In this document: one piece after another, positions 2,555 through 10,396 of the stretch | How positions within the stretch are numbered: position 1 is the stretch's first letter | Layout of the letters: each line of letters begins with the position of its first letter | Assembly (NCBI GenBank): GCA_000182565.2 | Contig: KQ257475.1 | DNA: 26,730 nt | Direction: 5' to 3' (one strand) | Source: Spizellomyces punctatus DAOM BR117 | Taxonomy: Eukaryota | Made by a program: the position numbers and the translations under genes | Notes under the pieces: generated by a model | Told to the model about the DNA's origin: nothing | Databases searched by the model: none | What the model saw: only the letters and a program-made list of their open reading frames with translations

Positions 2555-3510
2555 ATTAGAATAGTTTTAAAAAGGACAGTCTAATCCCTCCTGCGGTTTT
2601 CTAACTACGACCAAATGTGCCCAATTTCCTCAAAACCGATATAAGTCGGACTTGAACACGCTCATCGCGATTCCATGTGACGTGGCGCATGGGGCTTACG
2701 TGATGCCGATCCATTTTTGTGTTGCTGAGGGCGGTTGAACTTATGGTTACCGATACTAGTTCATAGAATGGAACTATTGACCCGCGCAATAGAATCAAAA
2801 GACGGATTAGCCGTCGTTGAGCGGGTAACTTTGCCCACTATCAGGCAGGAATGGCTGCAAGCGATATGATCTATCTTGGGCGGGAACTCGAAACTGTTAT
2901 GTGTTGTAGACAAGATGCTGGCGGGTTGTGGCCTTCAAGTGGTTCACGTAGGAGGCTCCTTATTTAGACATGGTAGCCCAATATCCACCAAAACTTGAAT
3001 TATCAAAGTTTTATACTATGAGTAGGTCCGTATTTGTTTTGGAATCCTGCACACATTTGTGGGCATGTAGCAGTCATGCAAGATGCGCCGAACCCGCCCA
3101 ATGCCCCACACCGAATGTCTCTGTTTTGGTTCCCAAAATGCTGTCATTGTGCAAAATCCCTTGCTGTTGCGGCGCCTCCTTGCTGGTGCGTCGCCAGTGG
3201 GTGGTCGGGGATCGCACAGTGTTCCTGTGCATGCGCCAGTGCAGGCTCCTGTGCATGCTCCATGTGCAGGCTCATGTGGATGTTCCATCTGCCAGGCAAG
3301 TTCAACAACCACACAATCACGTGAAAATATCCAATGCACTCTAATGCGATGTGCCACTGTACGACATTGCCGTAACCTAAAAAGGCAATGCTTACTCATC
3401 ACTCTAATACTAAGCCCCTTTCAAAACACTGCAAGAGAACACAATGAAAAAGGAAGGCTTTGGGGCGGGTGAGCGTTTGCCGAAAAGGAGAACGGTGACT
3501 TTTTTGGTTT

Positions 3511-3512
<2 letters not shown>

Positions 3513-3541
<29 letters not shown>
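3513..3541 (+). repeat. poly(G) tract, 29 nt
   Basis: Uninterrupted G run about 300 bp upstream of the cyclase ATG. Confidence 0.95.
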
Positions 3542-3844: not shown

Positions 3845-5949
3845 ATGGAGTCAATATACGCATATCCTCCCGCAGTTCACAGAGAAGATGCCTATTTGCA
3901 AGCCTATGCGGCGCTAACTGGCGGAAAGCGACGGCCATCCGATGAATCCATCACATCCGGAATGACCTCGGCAACAAAGACGAGCGATCCACGGCCAAGC
4001 AATATCAACAACACGAACGGCTCGAGTGCAGACAAGCTGATCATGCACACATCGCCCAGACGGTCAGTCGCCACAGACGATGCCGCCCGATTGGTCTACA
4101 TGACAAAGTTTGGAGGAAAGACAGACTTTCCGTTGGTGAGAGAAGAAACGACCATTGGGCGAAAGGATGATAACCACATTGCATTGCCGTGCGCCAAAAT
4201 CTCAAAGTACCACGCAGTCGTCAAGAGAGGTGAACATGGTTACTACATACGGGACCGAAATTCTTCAAACGGCATCAAGATTAATGAAAAGCTCATTTCG
4301 AGTGCTCCACAGCTACTCAAGGATGGCGACAAGATTGATATCGGGACGTTTACATTGTTTTTTCAAGATGAGGTTCAGGAGGACGGTGGACAGGCCCAGA
4401 GAAATTCGTACGAGCCATCAAGCCCTCTTTCACCCACTGCCTCGACAGTCAACGGAACCCTAACCCAACGCCCCTCTTCCCTCACAGAAGAGGAATACCG
4501 CTTTACAAAACTTGTCACTATTCTTCCCTCTGATCAAAAGTATGAAGAAAGTGTTACGATCAGAGCCGAAATGTCTGCAACAACCGCCGATACGGATTTT
4601 CGGCAATGCCAGGATGTAGCAGACATGGCCACCTTGAAAGAGGACTATGAAAAGCTTCGACTCGCATATGAACTGTCCAAAGTTTTTACGACGAATGTCA
4701 CGGAAGCACTTTCCAAATCTTGCGAACTCATGTTTGAAATCCTCCCCGTCGATCGTGCCGTTGTTCTACTGGTTGATGACGACACCAATATGCTTGGAAC
4801 ACATTATGTCAAAGTACGGGAAGGCAAAGGTTACGATAAAAAGGAAATATGCCTGAGTTCCACTATCCTACGCAAGGTGTATCACTCCCGCAAGTGCCTT
4901 ATTACATCGGACGCGTTTGAAGATCCCATGTTGAGCAAACAGGCGTCCGTCAAAGTCGGTCAAATTCGGTCGGTCATTTGCGTTCCTTTGATTGCTCACA
5001 GCAAAGTTCTTGGAATCCTTCACCTGGACTCACGGGACAGGATAAACACCTTTTCGAAAAAGGATCTATCTCTTGTGTTGACCATCTCGACGCAAACCGC
5101 TATGGCGATCGAAAATTCAATGTTGATTAAAGAGATTCAGCAAAAAGCACGATTGACCGAAAACTTGTCCCGGTTCTTGCCTCCTCATGTGGTTTCCAAA
5201 ATGACGAGTGCCAAGGGTTCAGAGGGCATCACTCGCGGTGGTGGGCGGGATACAGTGGGAACAATTTTGTTTGCGGATATCAGAGGGTTCACGCAGATGA
5301 GCGAAAAGAGTACTCCGAGTGAGGTTGTGAGTTTGTTGAACGATTACTTTGAGCGGGTAAGTTCTGTCCCTCCAAGAGACGTTAATATGCTACTTGTCCT
5401 AATAAAAGGTCTTTTACCAGCTGGTGAATATTGTATTCAAGTACTCTGGTGTGGTCGACAAGTACATTGGTGATGCTCTCATGGCGGCCTTTGGCACACT
5501 CGAGCATGAAGGCCCGGACGCCGAGTACCGTGCCGTCTGTGCTGCCCTTGAATTCAAGCAAGCAATCGACGACATGAACGAGGAGCGGGCCAAGGTGGGC
5601 AAAGAGCCCATCTCGATTGGAATTGGTCTCAACACTGGTAAAGAAAAGCTTTTATGTTTGTATATTGAGATCGACGCGTGTATGAACCATTTTTGTTTCT
5701 ATTCCAGGTGAACTCTTGACGGGCTTTATTGGCTCTCCTCAGCGTCTCGAATACACTTGCATTGGCGACACTGTCAACACGTCCTCACGTATTTGTTCAA
5801 TGGCGTCTGTAAACCAAGTTTTAATTTCACAGTCGACCTTTGACGCCATCACAGGACGTGTGGAAGTCGTTCCGGTCGGTTTGCGCATGTTTAAGGGAAA
5901 AGTGAAGGAAGTGATGGTTTGGGAAGCGATAGGGATTCTGCCAGTATGA
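3845..5949 (+). CDS. FHA-GAF-class III adenylate cyclase (~656 aa, soluble); exons 3845-5356, 5421-5637, 5708-5949
   Basis: FHA motifs TIGR..ISKYHA..DRNSSNG. GAF motifs DRAVVLL..IRSVICVPL..LGILHLDS..FSKKDL..AMAIEN. Cyclase motifs FADIRGFT, DKYIGDALMA, GIGLNTG, EYTCIGDTVNTSSRI. Two canonical introns (gtaagt..ccag, gtaaag..ccag) restore the frame. Confidence 0.95.
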
Positions 5950-6504
5950 AATTGCTGTGTTTGGTGGACTGTAATTATTATTCTTATTTTGGGTTTGGTT
6001 GCTGATGGGTGGTGTATATATACTGCACATGTATGAAATTTAAATTCGCAAAGATTGGCATATTGGACTCGTTAACATTTTTTTGCATATTCTGAAGGGA
6101 TAAGTGTTTATTGTCTTGATTGGCGGTACGCCCGATACTTGCCTCTGATCATGTGATTCGGTAACAAAGATGGGACCTGCAATTTGATCCCATTTAGCTT
6201 TGGTTGGGTTGTCGAATCGCAATTACTGAAATGGATCGACGTTGACCATGCGCATCAAACGAGATCAAACGAGTCGATCACCGTGGTATCTATCGACTAC
6301 GAAAAACGATCTCCTCCTTGCGTCATGATCAAGCCCCGTACTTTGTCTGTGTACCTTACGAGATGAACGCCAAAGGACGCAGATTGTCTCCTGGGGCGTT
6401 ACAAACCGTCACCCGCGGGGTCATCGAAAGGTATACAGCCAGGGATAAGCTTATTATCCCCTTTATAAGGGGGACAACGAGAACAGGCGTTCAGTTCAAA
6501 AGAT

Positions 6505-6525
6505 GGGGGGGGGGGGGGGGGGGGG
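6505..6525 (+). repeat. poly(G) tract, 21 nt
   Basis: Uninterrupted G run in the cyclase-Pmp3 intergenic region. Confidence 0.95.
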
Positions 6526-7021
6526 CTTTGCTGAGGTTTAAGAGAAATGTCACGCTGTACGACTACAGCGTTTTTTGGGGAATGTTTCGTCGGTATGGAT
6601 ACGTCATGCTTCCATATCTAGATTTAATCACTTGTGGTAAAACAGAACGACGGGCCGTCTTTTTAATTGGATTTTCTATGCTCTCCATGTTCTGTAGCCA
6701 TTTGACTTGTTAGCGTTATTGGCTGACCCAACCACAAATGTTTTGTAGACAGCTGCAGTATGTTTTGCATGCTTTCAATCTTGTTCTTTTATGATGGCCT
6801 ACACTAGCGGAGGTCACAGTTTTTGAAGATCTTGTCCTATCTTGCGCGATGGTCAAGGACAATCAAACAGTACTGAAGAATAACCAATAATATCAGCGTC
6901 ATTTCATGACATGGCATTTCCTTTTGCTTTTGTTTTCATAAAATCACACACATTAAAAACACTCCAACACACACACGAAAGAGAAGCGAAATTCCATAGT
7001 CACAAATGACATACCTGTGCA

Positions 7022-7097
7022 TGACGTCAGAACGCGTTGATGTTTCTTTCTCCTCCTCCTTGGCTTCTCCTTTAGTGCCAAAATCGAGATATAAAAA
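7022..7097 (+). promoter_or_regulatory. Pmp3 promoter: CRE palindrome TGACGTCA (7022-7029) and TATA box TATAAAAA (7090-7097)
   Basis: Perfect ATF/CREB consensus about 60 bp upstream of a canonical TATA box, which lies about 130 bp upstream of the ATG. Confidence 0.55.
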
Positions 7098-7223
7098 GGG
7101 TTGGACTGGCAGCCGTTTCCCTTTTTATTCTTTACTCTTCAGATTCTGCAAGACGGGCATATAGCCAACAACATACAAGAACAACCAACACACGACCAAC
7201 CCATCACTACACACACAAAAAGA

Positions 7224-7484
7224 ATGGTGTCCGCAGCTCAAATATGCGATTACCTTCTCGCCTTTTTCCTTCCACCTCTTGGTGTCTTTTTCAAGCGAGG
7301 CTGTTCGGCAGATACGTTTATTAACATTGGATTGACCATCCTTGGATATATCCCAGGTAAGCTGCTTTAGTCTATTGGATGAATGACAAAAGATTGGGTT
7401 CTAATGACGCGCGTTTCGTTGGTAGGAATAATACACGCCTTTTACATTATCCACAAGCACCGTCCAGGTGTTGTTCTGGCATGA
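7224..7484 (+). CDS. PMP3: Plasma membrane proteolipid 3 (Pmp3/RCI2 family), 63 aa; exons 7224-7356, 7426-7484
   Basis: MVSAAQICDYLLAFFLPPLGVFFKRGCSADTFINIGLTILGYIPG|IIHAFYIIHK... carries the family signatures LPPLGV, INIxLTILGYIPG and IIHA. Intron gtaagc..ctaat..gtag. Confidence 0.93.
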
Positions 7485-10396
7485 GAAGAGGGTTAGTGAT
7501 GTGAGGAGGAGGAGGAAATGGTGGGGGGACGAATTATGATGAACGGATGGCTTTTGTTATCTTTGTATACGATGTAATGCTATAGTCAAACACATTGGTT
7601 TTTATGTTTGAACTGGCCACTGTCTTGATGGTTGACGTTGCTGAGGTAGCATTTCATTCTTTGGGGATCCTTCAAAAGAAGAGAAGTAATGAATGATCCG
7701 AGCCACTAGCCCGTATACTGAAAAAACGTCGTGGCATGCAAATAATGGCACCCATTTCTCCTCCATTATCCAACTGGAACTTGCCGATCACACTGCTATT
7801 GCCGCAGCGCATGTATGTAAAGCGCATACTTACTGGCAAGAAAAAGTCAAATCGTCGGCAAATGTACGATCACCCTCCAATAAAACCCTCAATCAAGCGA
7901 GTCTCAATGCGGAAGACACATCATCAATTTCCGCACCCTTGTCTGCTTCAAGCACCGTCACAGAACAAAGACAGAGGAAGAAACACGAGTGCGCTATATA
8001 CTCTTGCCTAGAAAATCCCATTTCCGTCAGTGTATGTGCAATCCATCAACCCGGCAGCACATAGACCAAAAGAAAAGCAGGATATGAAAGTAAATGTACA
8101 TGGCCAAACCAGGCCACCATGATCCACTATAGCTGAGTGGACGGCCAAAACGCTCCATGCAGGCCTGGCTCTACCGCTTCACACGAGAGAACAAGATGCT
8201 GTTGAATGCCATGCACAATGTTGTGGGTACTGTGGTGCGGTGCTGTCGTGGTAGCAAAGGAAACACAACTGCTGTTTGACAAGGTACAGAGTTGGTACAG
8301 CCATGGTTTGTCAAAGAACAGATGCAAATCTCGATGCAATCATGTGTGGATGCAATGGTCTTGGCTTTGGAGGCGAGACGACATCCCAAAAATCCGACAA
8401 TCACCATGGCAATGAAAAATCACGTTTCTGCGGTCATGTGCCTTGTCACACTCTGGGGTTCCAGATCACGTTGCAGAATCACGTGGCGTTCATTCCTTGA
8501 GATGGTCGGACCGCAGTCTGGGCGACCAATGGGGAACACAAAAGCAGACCCAGGAAAGACGTTTTCAGAGCGGCCATATTTCCTTGGCGGGGAATCGGGC
8601 GGAAGATCCCGGATTTAAACGGTTTTAGACTCGAAAGAGACTCCCATCAGGGCTGGTTACGCAACGGCCTTTGGCCTGTCCCCTTTTAGATGATGCCAGA
8701 CGCCAAAAAAGGTCTTTTGCAAGCCATAGCCTGAAGGTTCATTGCCGCTTTTGGCGGCTTGTATCGTTGGTGGTGACGTTTTGAATCTGTCGTACAGCTG
8801 CGAATCGTCGGTTTGACAAATTGTTTTGATTGTTTGCTTTAGAATCCAGGTGCTTGTTCCCATCACATTCTCCATCAAAACCAGGAAACGATACTATTTC
8901 CACAAAATTGTGGTGGTTGAATGGTGATGATGGGGAGAGATGGGCCGCTTGGTTTGTGATTTAAGACGCCATCGTGGATGATATTTTTTTTATCGCAGTC
9001 CATCTCTATGCCCATTTTTTTAATTTCCCATTCAACAATCCATGATTCATGAATGGGGGACAAGAGTCTTTTTTTTTGCTGTAACCAATCGCTCGACGGA
9101 CCTTTTATATCCGGTACGCTGGCCAAGCCCTCCGATTTTCACGCATTAGTAACTTTGGAATGCCACCATTGGCCCCTTTGTCGGCACAAGCGAGTCGTTC
9201 CAAAGAACGACACCGCGGACAAGATCAAATATCCGCATCTCTCTTTTTTTTAATCTTTTCCTTTCTTCCGATTTCTGAATGGCGCGAGGTAAGTCAACCT
9301 GTGGGAAGAACGCCAATCGGCTCCAATGGGCAGTTCATCTAGGGCATTCCCATAAGGCATCCCATAGCCAAAATGTTGAAAGGTTCCGCTTTTACTACAG
9401 GGATGAATCATTTTGCAGTTGCGCCGGATGGTTGGGGAAGCAAGTTATGTCACCCTGTTGTGTACCAGAACAGCCCAGATGGAAACTGCGATGATTTGAA
9501 AGCTTCCCAATCAAAAGAATCACGATTTTCCATGGTGACTCCATGCCTCGGCCTTTTGAGTTGCCTTTGCCGAGGTCCAGACTCGCCACCACGAATAAGC
9601 CGCCCACACGCGACACGTCCCAGGAGGGAGGTAAGTATATAACCGATACCACGGGATAATGCGAGCGTTGTACAAGACACGATCACGATCGTTACCAAAA
9701 CTGCGGATAATGTATGTTCCACCAATTGGGCCGTGTGAATTGGAAATCATCTTTTTTCAACTGCGCTTTCCCCACCAATGGGCTGATTTCTTACGACATT
9801 TCTTTCTAGTCCGTAGTTCGGAGGGTTAAAGGGGTGGAGGGGGCGTTTGTCGTAAAAAAGGGCCTAAAAATAATTGTTTTACACAAGGGAACAACGGGTG
9901 GGAAGAACAAGAAGGGAATGGGAGGCGGTTTTTTTTGTGTTGGAGTGTGTTGTTGTTGTGTGTGTGCCGCGCGTTTTTTGGCCCTGGAGAGAAACCTCAT
10001 TTTGTAAAATGTCGCAAACTGGGGGACAAAGGATGGGATATTCGTCATGGTGGTCGGGATGATGATGCATGAAATTGAGGGTTCCTTTGATTTTTTTCCT
10101 TTTTTTGACCCGTCGGCCCTCCATGGACTCTAGCCTTATTTTAGATACTCAATATTATCCCACTTTTAAAGAGCAGTTCTCCTCCCCTCCGTGGAATTTA
10201 TTATAAAAGATCCTTTTTTTTTTTCCTTGGCTGTGGGTTTCTGCAGTTCTGCCACAAGATCTAAAAAGGAAGACGCTTTCTTGCATCGCCGCCCCTTTCA
10301 ATAACCATCCAGACACACACACATCTGCATCTGCAAAAAACATTCAAGAAGCACGCATACCCACAATCCACGAAAACTTAGATCCTTTCCAATACG

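Follow-up and report, generated by a model that had tools for sequence, protein, structure and literature searches.

Adenylate cyclases of bacterial type had already been noticed in zoosporic fungi, as a first-pass annotation of the DNA treated here had suspected. A bacterial-origin 'adenylate cyclase' is counted among 23 transferred families of Batrachochytrium dendrobatidis in the part of Sun et al. 2016 (PMC5005798) drawn upon here, a cyclase (XP_006679093.1) is called 'widespread across chytrids' in the text of the preprint by Ciach et al. (bioRxiv 10.1101/2021.12.02.471044, 2023), and 17 cyclase genes are given for the blastoclad Blastocladiella emersonii in the cited sections of Leonard et al. 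2022 (PMC9730499), where its adenylyl cyclases are placed among 'bacterial-like sequences'. The present work deals with a 26,730-nucleotide (nt) stretch of Spizellomyces punctatus DAOM BR117 (contig KQ257475.1; the window in the following, at its full length), in which positions 3845–5949 encode SPPG_08774, a protein with an FHA, a GAF and one class III cyclase domain. Taken jointly, it is likely that this is an expressed FHA-GAF-class IIIb adenylate cyclase that goes back to a single early transfer from a Myxococcota-like bacterium and has been inherited vertically since.

The nearest catalogued group is orthogroup OG0003372 of Leonard et al. 2022 (H9P43_009473, which is KAI9152677 and P0124 in our numbering), and it belongs to the same family, P0124 being 54% identical over residues 58–654. 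In the supplement of PMC9730499 the orthogroup is listed without a membrane helix, as 'FHA GAF Guanylate_cyc', and is recorded in B. emersonii, four other blastoclads and R. globosum. The group is catalogued there, and in the portion of the article's text considered here FHA and GAF have 0 occurrences and S. punctatus, Rozella, the aphelids and a donor are likewise absent. For the B. dendrobatidis cyclase of Sun et al. 2016, the reported figures (36% identity, 3E-95, introns, expression) fit the FHA-GAF-cyclase family; several transfers are argued for in that part of the paper, whereas the SPPG_08774 orthogroup shows one. XP_006679093.1 of Ciach et al. may correspond to the orthologue P0034.

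Further treatment of FHA-GAF cyclases in zoosporic fungi was not found in literature searches, whose scope excluded the bioRxiv supplements and figures, possibly with trees. A search by locus tags returned only XP_006679093, in one preprint, and the literature searches gave no experimental description of any fungal or bacterial member. Since both the family and its affinity to bacteria have been published before, novelty is modest; the present analysis adds a single-origin tree with Rozella and aphelids, the donor subclade, the donor kinase operon, a conserved intron site and the class IIIb signature.

Among cyclases of solved structure, CyaC of Spirulina platensis (1wc0–1wc5), CyaB of P. aeruginosa (3r5g) and Cya2 of Synechocystis (2w01) share the catalytic fold and a homodimer-type residue set with SPPG_08774, and, by its title, one CyaC structure was determined with bicarbonate present. 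Unlike SPPG_08774, neither these three nor mammalian soluble adenylate cyclase (sAC/ADCY10) have FHA-GAF before the cyclase. Mammalian sAC/ADCY10, with its two tandem catalytic domains, is a far weaker match (about 1e-9), and SPPG_08774 has one PF00211 stretch. The fungal Cyr1/Cdc35 type is a class III cyclase too, but carries G-alpha-binding, leucine-rich repeat (LRR) and PP2C domains, none of which is present in SPPG_08774.

Much closer are bacterial FHA-GAF-cyclases (P0106, P0112, L001, L002), which form the sister group and have the same full-length architecture, linkers, and catalytic and FHA residues. Unlike the fungal genes, theirs have no introns and a GC content (GC) of 0.62–0.71, and are followed by a Ser/Thr kinase gene, whereas the fungal proteins differ from the bacterial ones by a disordered S/T-rich N-terminus and a longer FHA-GAF linker. 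Some bacterial members begin with a zinc-ribbon-like segment: in the closest relatives, P0106 and P0112, a CxxC...CxxC stretch stands before the FHA domain (DUF7577 in P0106), and this segment is not in the fungal proteins.

The cyclase gene and its product

Positions 3845–5949 of the window are a genuine expressed nuclear gene of S. punctatus. It was read directly from the sequence on the + strand as three exons, and the joined exon translations give 656 amino acids that agree letter for letter, both junctions included, with the database protein P0004, which is SPPG_08774 of strain DAOM BR117. The gene and its parts are as follows.

3845–5356, + strand: exon 1, ATG start, codons 1–504, ending in NDYFER; 100% identical to P0004 residues 1–504; codes for the disordered N-terminus, FHA, an S/T/P-rich linker, a conserved helix, GAF, the long helix and the start of the cyclase
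4148–4345, + strand: FHA core, residues 102–167 (Pfam PF00498, 4.6e-17, 62.6 bits; predicted local distance difference test, pLDDT, >90)
4691–5113, + strand: GAF, residues 283–423 (Pfam GAF_2 3.5e-14, GAF 1.2e-12; modelled GAF fold 285–400)
5057–5170, + strand: long helix from GAF to cyclase, residues 405–442 (DSSP on the AlphaFold2 model), running into LSRFLPP (441–447)
5261–5916, + strand: class III cyclase domain, residues 473–646 (PF00211, 9.1e-29), interrupted by both introns
5276–5278, 5460–5462 and 5755–5757, + strand: key cyclase codons D478, K518 and T593
5357–5420, + strand: intron 1, 64 nt, GTAAGT...CAG, phase 0, after NDYFER
5421–5637, + strand: exon 2, codons 505–576 and the first base of codon 577
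5638–5707, + strand: intron 2, 70 nt, GTAAAG...CAG, phase 1, inside the Gly codon after GLNT
5708–5949, + strand: exon 3, rest of codon 577 to codon 656, with the TGA stop at 5947–5949
5950–6075, + strand: 3' untranslated region, with poly(A) addition sites at about 6072–6075 from RNA reads of run X7

Reads of the RNA run X7 (same species label) pile up at the 3' end, with a depth of up to 154 at 5887–5967, and untemplated poly(A) was seen on 7 reads after 6072 and on 32 reads after 6075. Because of these poly(A)-ended reads, the gene is regarded as transcribed, with polyadenylation about 125 nt beyond the stop codon. Contigs of X1–X3 are colinear with the genome, intron 1 included, and are uninformative on splicing.

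The best non-fungal matches of the protein are bacterial, which would suit bacterial contamination or an assembly artefact. This explanation is refuted and retains practically no probability. The gene has two GT-AG introns and poly(A)-tailed reads and is flanked on either side by eukaryotic genes, those in the window being Nop14 (12616–15653), an ankyrin-repeat protein, an Arf GTPase, a MutS-domain protein and a C2H2 zinc-finger protein, and orthologues occur in dozens of independently sequenced fungi. Base composition is host-like as well, with a GC of 0.487 and a third-position GC (GC3) of 0.53 in the cyclase coding sequence, set against 0.48 and 0.47–0.55 in the Nop14 pieces and 0.62–0.71 and 0.77–0.96 in the closest bacterial genes. 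Both introns (GC 0.39 for intron 1 and 0.33 for intron 2) are AT-richer than the coding sequence (0.49).

With the full protein, the Pfam match to Guanylate_cyc PF00211 reaches 100.8 bits against a cut-off of 21.9, and the three exon pieces are colinear on the cyclase profile (positions 10–40, 55–108 and 112–179); overlapping models of the same domains are GAF, GAF_3 and Yop-YscD_cpl. LRR, PP2C and G-alpha-binding domains or a second cyclase domain were not found by Pfam at E ≤ 0.001 in the full 656-residue protein. As the most hydrophobic 19-residue Kyte-Doolittle window reaches only 1.67 and lies within the GAF core, the protein has no membrane segment. Pfam and hydropathy thereby agree with the first-pass annotation, which had described a soluble FHA-GAF-cyclase with a single catalytic domain and neither a transmembrane segment nor LRR or PP2C domains.

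The AlphaFold2 model has a mean pLDDT of 81.2, exceeding 93 in the cyclase domain. It has a folded FHA at about 80–175, disordered stretches at 1–60 and 181–208, a helix at 261–278, GAF at 285–400 and the cyclase at 468–653. The cyclase domain, whose closest PDB matches are 2w01, 3r5g and 1wc0, superposes on Cya2 (TM-score 0.88–0.91, root-mean-square deviation 1.3–1.8 Å), CyaB and CyaC, the TM-scores being 0.85–0.91 depending on the target. The best overall structural match is an engineered phytochrome-cyclase, in which sensor, helix and cyclase are aligned over 439 columns. The helix ending in LSRFLPP is presumably a signalling helix or cyclase-transducer element, which would relay to the catalytic dimer what state the sensor ahead of it is in. 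This motif is conserved in fungal and bacterial relatives, and so is the segment LKEDYEKLRL, which fits the earlier impression that both resemble myxobacterial proteins.

Residue conservation was counted over 76 aligned family members, fungal and bacterial. D478 and D522, which we take to be the metal-binding Asp residues, are kept in 76/76 rows. K518, four residues before D522, is kept in 75/76 (one gap), as are N600 and R604 (one gap each), whereas T593, seven residues before N600, is kept in 71/76 (four Ser, one Trp); we assume K518/T593 to be the base-reading pair and N600/R604 the transition-state residues. The catalytic positions named in the first-pass annotation, the ATP-type Lys K518 included, are hence intact and kept in at least 71 of the 76 rows. 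In the FHA domain, G105, R106, S120, H123 and N142, presumably the phosphothreonine-binding pocket (Gly-Arg, Ser-x-x-His, Asn), are present and kept in 75–76 of 76 rows.

Class IIIb adenylate cyclases are said, after Linder & Schultz, to have Lys together with Thr or Ser, and not Asp, at the base-reading positions, and many of them respond to bicarbonate/CO2. SPPG_08774 carries this Lys/Thr signature and is, judged by its residues, presumably an adenylate cyclase of class IIIb. It would be possible that the protein does not act as an adenylate cyclase in vivo: it may be a guanylate cyclase or a promiscuous one, or it may serve above all as a scaffold that depends on phosphothreonine and catalyses little. 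Cya2 (2w01), which has the closest catalytic domain of solved structure, is indeed titled guanylyl cyclase, and two residues give no certain substrate choice in class III cyclases. Cya2, however, has Glu at the position of K518 and Gly at that of T593, the six catalytic positions are kept across fungi and bacteria, which argues for an active enzyme, and the bacterial-like cyclases of B. emersonii are classed as adenylyl cyclases or left unassigned in the cited portion of Leonard et al. 2022 (PMC9730499). A non-adenylate function is therefore considered quite improbable.

The GAF domain matches the GAF profile but appears to lack the NKFDE signature of cyclic-nucleotide-binding GAF domains. NKFDE is the motif of GAF domains of the PDE2/5 and CyaB1/2 type, which bind cyclic nucleoside monophosphates. 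By eye, the corresponding stretch of P0004 reads N-T-F-S-K-K-D-L, in which Asn, Phe and Asp are kept and Lys and Glu are not.

Relatives and origin of the family

A word-indexed search with exon 1 was carried out and the best 120 matches were listed. The named eukaryotes in this list are without exception chytrids from many orders, blastoclads (Allomyces, Catenaria, Blastocladiella, Coelomomyces, Paraphysoderma), aphelids or sanchytrids, with Amoeboaphelidium, Caulochytrium, Homolaphlyctis and Sanchytrium (EukProt entry) as further names; Batrachochytrium, with its pathogens of amphibians, and Synchytrium, the agent of potato wart, are also among the matches listed. Most of the matches listed carry the same FHA, GAF and cyclase domains. 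The first named bacterium stands at rank 103 of 120 and is a Deltaproteobacteria protein from a metagenome-assembled genome (MAG), with 653 amino acids, 39% identity and 92% query coverage. An exhaustive HMMER search of 1.84 billion cluster representatives returned 6283 proteins at E ≤ 1e-30, with scores falling from 428 bits (Sanchytrium) to 336 bits. Further named members are Rozella allomycis P0131, Amoeboaphelidium occidentale, Amoeboradix gromovi, a second Synchytrium copy and B. emersonii P0124 (1655 amino acids). In these searches the family seems to be found only in zoosporic lineages.

In bacterial genomes, taken as one per species, a relative is encoded in at least 594 of 603 candidate stretches. 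The best 80 of these loci are mostly from Myxococcota, then from Acidobacteriota/Pyrinomonadaceae, Mariprofundaceae, Syntrophobacteraceae and a few others. The nearest large ESM Atlas clusters are all bacterial, and in a metagenome scan a relative is encoded in 53 of 386 stretches; these make up 52 loci, nearly all of them bacterial-like. Fungal and bacterial proteins are colinear with 42–44% identity, and this includes the inter-domain segments LVTILP, LKxDYEKLRL and LSRFLPP.

Two trees place the fungal genes beside one bacterial subclade. The FastTree analysis comprised 218 rows (45 named fungal, 4 named bacterial, 25 unnamed, 67 representatives and 77 of the 80 bacterial loci, with L019, L038 and L079 omitted as partial), and in it the fungal-type sequences form one clade of 61 rows, unnamed ones included (support 99). 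Its sister is a group of 18 bacterial rows with L001, L002, P0106 and P0112, the joint support being 100 against 139 other bacterial rows. The IQ-TREE analysis (LG+C20+F+G4; 76 chosen rows, 561 columns; unrooted) likewise gave one fungal clade of 26 rows (100/99), in which Rozella comes first and the aphelids next (100/97), followed by sanchytrids and blastoclads (99/95) beside chytrids (100/99). The accepted species tree has the same order. Nearest to the fungi are 11 bacterial rows of an uncultured Myxococcota subclade, labelled SIS; fungi and SIS join at 100/100, and their next sister is Myxococcaceae/Archangiaceae (98/95). Within this group, the fungi fall inside SIS beside the L001/L002 group (99/87). 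When 58 further representatives were added (four more were omitted for length), 0 entered the fungal or SIS clades.

The domains were also analysed in parts, as the first-pass annotation had proposed. The cyclase part (fungi 97, fungi and SIS 100) and the linker and GAF part (fungi 100, fungi and SIS 99; Rozella with its truncated GAF omitted) both join the fungi with SIS, and the FHA part, taken up below, does not.

The genomes of L001 and L002 measure 8.0 and 9.8 Mb and hold one close orthologue each. In L002, a Pkinase gene (1.6e-51) overlaps the cyclase stop codon. A Ser/Thr kinase lies in the flanks of 39 of the best 80 bacterial loci, directly downstream on the same strand in 30, upstream on the same strand in 7 and upstream on the other strand in 2. 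In the ten closest bacterial genes examined (L001, L002 and 8/8 SIS-like metagenome loci), the kinase is directly downstream in 10/10.

As the fungal genes are one clade that joins a bacterial subclade, the transfer is best read as an ancient one from bacterium to fungus. The evidence points to a single entry, by which the common ancestor of the zoosporic Holomycota sampled here received the three-domain gene as a whole from a Myxococcota-like donor, with vertical descent thereafter. The donor gene would have sat in an operon with a Ser/Thr kinase, and entry would have preceded the split of Rozella, aphelids, sanchytrids, blastoclads and chytrids; the gene would then have been inherited vertically, have acquired the base composition of its host and have gained introns. 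An ancient transfer from bacterium to fungus had been proposed in the first-pass annotation, and the tree and the Myxococcota-centred family support this part. The gene is not restricted to chytrids, though, and since the clade holds Rozella, aphelids, sanchytrids and blastoclads in species-tree order, the transfer predates the chytrids. That annotation had also set a broad vertical eukaryotic clade against nesting among bacteria as a test of refutation. Both hold, with a vertical fungal clade placed among bacteria, and the test was thus a false either/or.

Vertical inheritance alone could be envisaged if an FHA-GAF-cyclase was present in an early eukaryote or opisthokont and was lost except in zoosporic fungi, SIS being then the nearest prokaryotic kin or a recipient from a eukaryote. 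An old fungal clade in species-tree order does not by its topology demand a transfer, the tree is unrooted, and a position of the fungi as sister to SIS, instead of inside it, is permitted by the approximately unbiased (AU) test. However, fungi and SIS (100/100) are enclosed by a ladder-like series of Myxococcota groups, the bacterial members of the family run to thousands in several phyla, and no non-fungal eukaryote is among the matches listed. Minimum-variance rooting placed the root among other bacteria (0.595), and a root on the fungal stem almost doubles the root-to-tip variance (1.048). SIS is not nested within the fungi, so that an origin of SIS by transfer from eukaryote to bacterium is not seen, and the SIS genes lie in 8–10 Mb high-GC genomes in an operon with the kinase. 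On these grounds, purely vertical descent is regarded as unlikely.

Several independent bacterial transfers into single fungal lineages, as put forward for the B. dendrobatidis copies in the cited part of Sun et al. 2016 (PMC5005798), are considered very unlikely for this gene. Copies of the B. dendrobatidis cyclase are placed there on different branches near donors, and six cyclase-domain proteins are reported for this species in the section of PMC2939053 used here, so other bacterial-like cyclases may have histories of their own. Against this stand all 26 fungal rows (61 in the large tree), which form one clade (100/99 and 99) in species-tree-like order, and a loss of similarity at one shared intron site in relatives from several orders.

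The intron sites were traced in 40 matches whose similarity to P0004 ends before residue 640, many of them predicted unspliced or on short contigs. Similarity breaks at residues 504–513, right after YFER/YFEK and thus at the site of intron 1, in 25 of the 40, and in 24 of these 25 the next residue is Val, as in a reading of GTN at the intron start. Another 5 of the 40 break at 577–584 after GLNTG (the intron 2 site), and two sanchytrid-type sequences break at 616. The nearest named relatives of the 25 are Globomyces (8), Boothiomyces (5), Gorgonomyces (2), Batrachochytrium (1), Borealophlyctis (8) and Obelidium (1), or by order Rhizophydiales (16), Rhizophlyctidales (8, Borealophlyctis) and Chytridiales (1, Obelidium), with Boothiomyces, Gorgonomyces and Batrachochytrium taken to be Rhizophydiales. 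Intron 1 is, as far as such sequence breaks tell, common to at least four chytrid orders including Spizellomycetales, and it is not universal. Because similarity breaks at its site in relatives of three other chytrid orders, both introns look old. The first-pass annotation had given two introns and a 1512-bp exon 1, as found here, and had read them as fitting partial intronisation; a recent event of this kind is not what the two introns look like.

Two deposited gene models stand out at these sites. The model of P0020 (Gorgonomyces haynaldii) appears to read through intron 1, and similarity ends with YFER and V, followed by unrelated residues; that of P0006 (Phlyctochytrium arcticum) appears to read through intron 2, and similarity ends with GLNTG, again followed by unrelated residues. 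Both are probably mis-annotated.

A number of results weigh against the single transfer or against parts of it. The family tree is unrooted and contains members only; midpoint and minimum-variance roots are weak arguments. In the AU test, SIS as one clade was not rejected (p 0.089), and for this reason only a position of the fungi sister to or within the SIS subclade is claimed and the donor is defined to that subclade. In the tree of the FHA part alone (92 columns), fungi (97) and SIS (95–96) are not joined. The Rozella branch is long (2.1) and its GAF truncated. For non-zoosporic fungi, Neocallimastigomycota, Monoblepharidomycetes, Olpidium and non-fungal eukaryotes, no member was found among the matches listed and in the 2010 survey of Soanes & Talbot, which are the sole basis for this statement. 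The kinase of the bacterial operon left no homologue in the window by tblastn (best E 4.3), and its best 120 of 7636 matches contain no named eukaryote, all being bacterial-labelled or unnamed; this list is saturated, so that a fungal copy of 40–45% identity may fall outside it. Splice joints were not found in the X7 reads, a 3'-biased run with an intron depth of 0.4–2.6, and the introns consequently rest on homology and the deposited model. Finally, L088, a metagenome contig of eukaryote-like appearance (GC 0.36, 56% identity) and the only eukaryotic-looking one of the 52 metagenome loci, has no intron 1 and reads through residue 504; near query residues 131–134 it shows a gap of 12 nt or a change of frame.

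A likeness to cyanobacterial Cya1/CyaD, which had been put forward in the first-pass annotation, is not supported: only 1 of the best 80 bacterial loci is labelled cyanobacterial. This locus (L008, from a MAG labelled Geitlerinema) groups inside Nannocystaceae/Polyangia, a placement which could be due to mis-binning or to transfer between bacteria.

Further members of the family show peculiarities of their own. P0124 of B. emersonii has about 1000 extra N-terminal residues without a Pfam match, which may be a gene-model fusion or a real extension. In P0131 of R. allomycis (547 amino acids) FHA and cyclase are kept, GAF is no longer recognised by Pfam, and the C-terminal third of GAF is missing from the alignment. 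P0038 of Chytriomyces confervae (737 amino acids, 54% identity) has all three domains. In Table S8 of Leonard et al. 2022, as far as this table is considered here, the FHA-GAF-cyclase orthogroup is marked '-' for C. confervae despite P0038, which is probably a difference in orthogroup clustering.

Possible mode of action and role in cyclic AMP signalling

As one chain carries all six catalytic residues, SPPG_08774 presumably acts as a head-to-tail homodimer. The single catalytic domains of two chains would pair, so that two equivalent ATP sites arise. At each site one chain would contribute D478 and D522, which hold two metal ions, and the other K518 and T593, which read the adenine, while N600 and R604 stabilise the transition state; the expected product is cyclic AMP (cAMP). 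GAF and the long helix into LSRFLPP might set the register of the two catalytic domains and hence the activity. The FHA domain would dock on a phosphothreonine written by a Ser/Thr kinase, and this residue could lie in a partner or in the S/T-rich N-terminus or linker of the protein itself. The adjacency of a kinase in the closest bacteria fits such phosphothreonine gating through FHA. The kinase neighbour was not seen in the fungal window; the fungal FHA presumably reads marks of host kinases. With the Lys/Thr signature, a stimulation by CO2/bicarbonate would also be plausible.

Effectors of cAMP appear to be at hand, as orthogroups of protein kinase A/protein kinase G (PKA/PKG), a cyclic-nucleotide-gated channel and a phosphodiesterase are listed for blastoclads and two chytrids in the supplement of Leonard et al. 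2022 (PMC9730499). According to the passages on cyclases in Soanes & Talbot 2010 (PMC2939053), Dikarya and zygomycetes have only LRR-type cyclases, and none of the six cyclase-domain proteins of B. dendrobatidis is LRR-type. The FHA-GAF type and the Cyr1 type may thus be complementary and not coexisting. The proposal of a second, Cyr1-independent cAMP source, made in the first-pass annotation, becomes doubtful with the reported lack of an LRR-type cyclase in B. dendrobatidis.

A more far-reaching idea is that the myxobacterial-type cyclase, acquired before Rozella, aphelids and true fungi went separate ways, is the ancestral and still the principal soluble cAMP source of spore-swimming fungi. 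FHA would bring in kinase signals, the class IIIb site and GAF would bring in CO2/bicarbonate or a small ligand, and the enzyme would link these to behaviour of the zoospore such as swimming, encystment or germination; it would have been dropped for the LRR-type Cyr1 when the flagellum was lost. This idea is tentative and on the whole rather doubtful; if it were true, the enzyme would be a fungal counterpart of the soluble adenylate cyclase in animal sperm. If the transfer and descent proposed above are true, a whole bacterial sensor-enzyme would have been grafted into the cAMP signalling of the earliest fungi and kept throughout zoosporic history, which would amount to a datable inter-domain transfer of a signalling module. 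A marker gene that seems to go along with the zoosporic lifestyle would be gained as well, together with a candidate, so far unstudied, for the control of zoospore biology. For the time being the practical use is limited, and the family is already catalogued.

Other features around the gene

Upstream of the cyclase gene, a short tandem array with a period of 12 or 25 and 3–4.6 copies lies at 3223–3297 of the window. It is followed by an unbroken run of 29 G at 3513–3541, which is intergenic and about 300 nt upstream of the cyclase start codon; the run could be a promoter element prone to form a G-quadruplex, or an oddity of sequencing or assembly. Downstream of the gene, about 4 kb (6100–10380) have no stop-free frame above 155 amino acids, and the one frame tested there (6246–6713) gave no Pfam match. 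This region may be intron-rich or non-coding.

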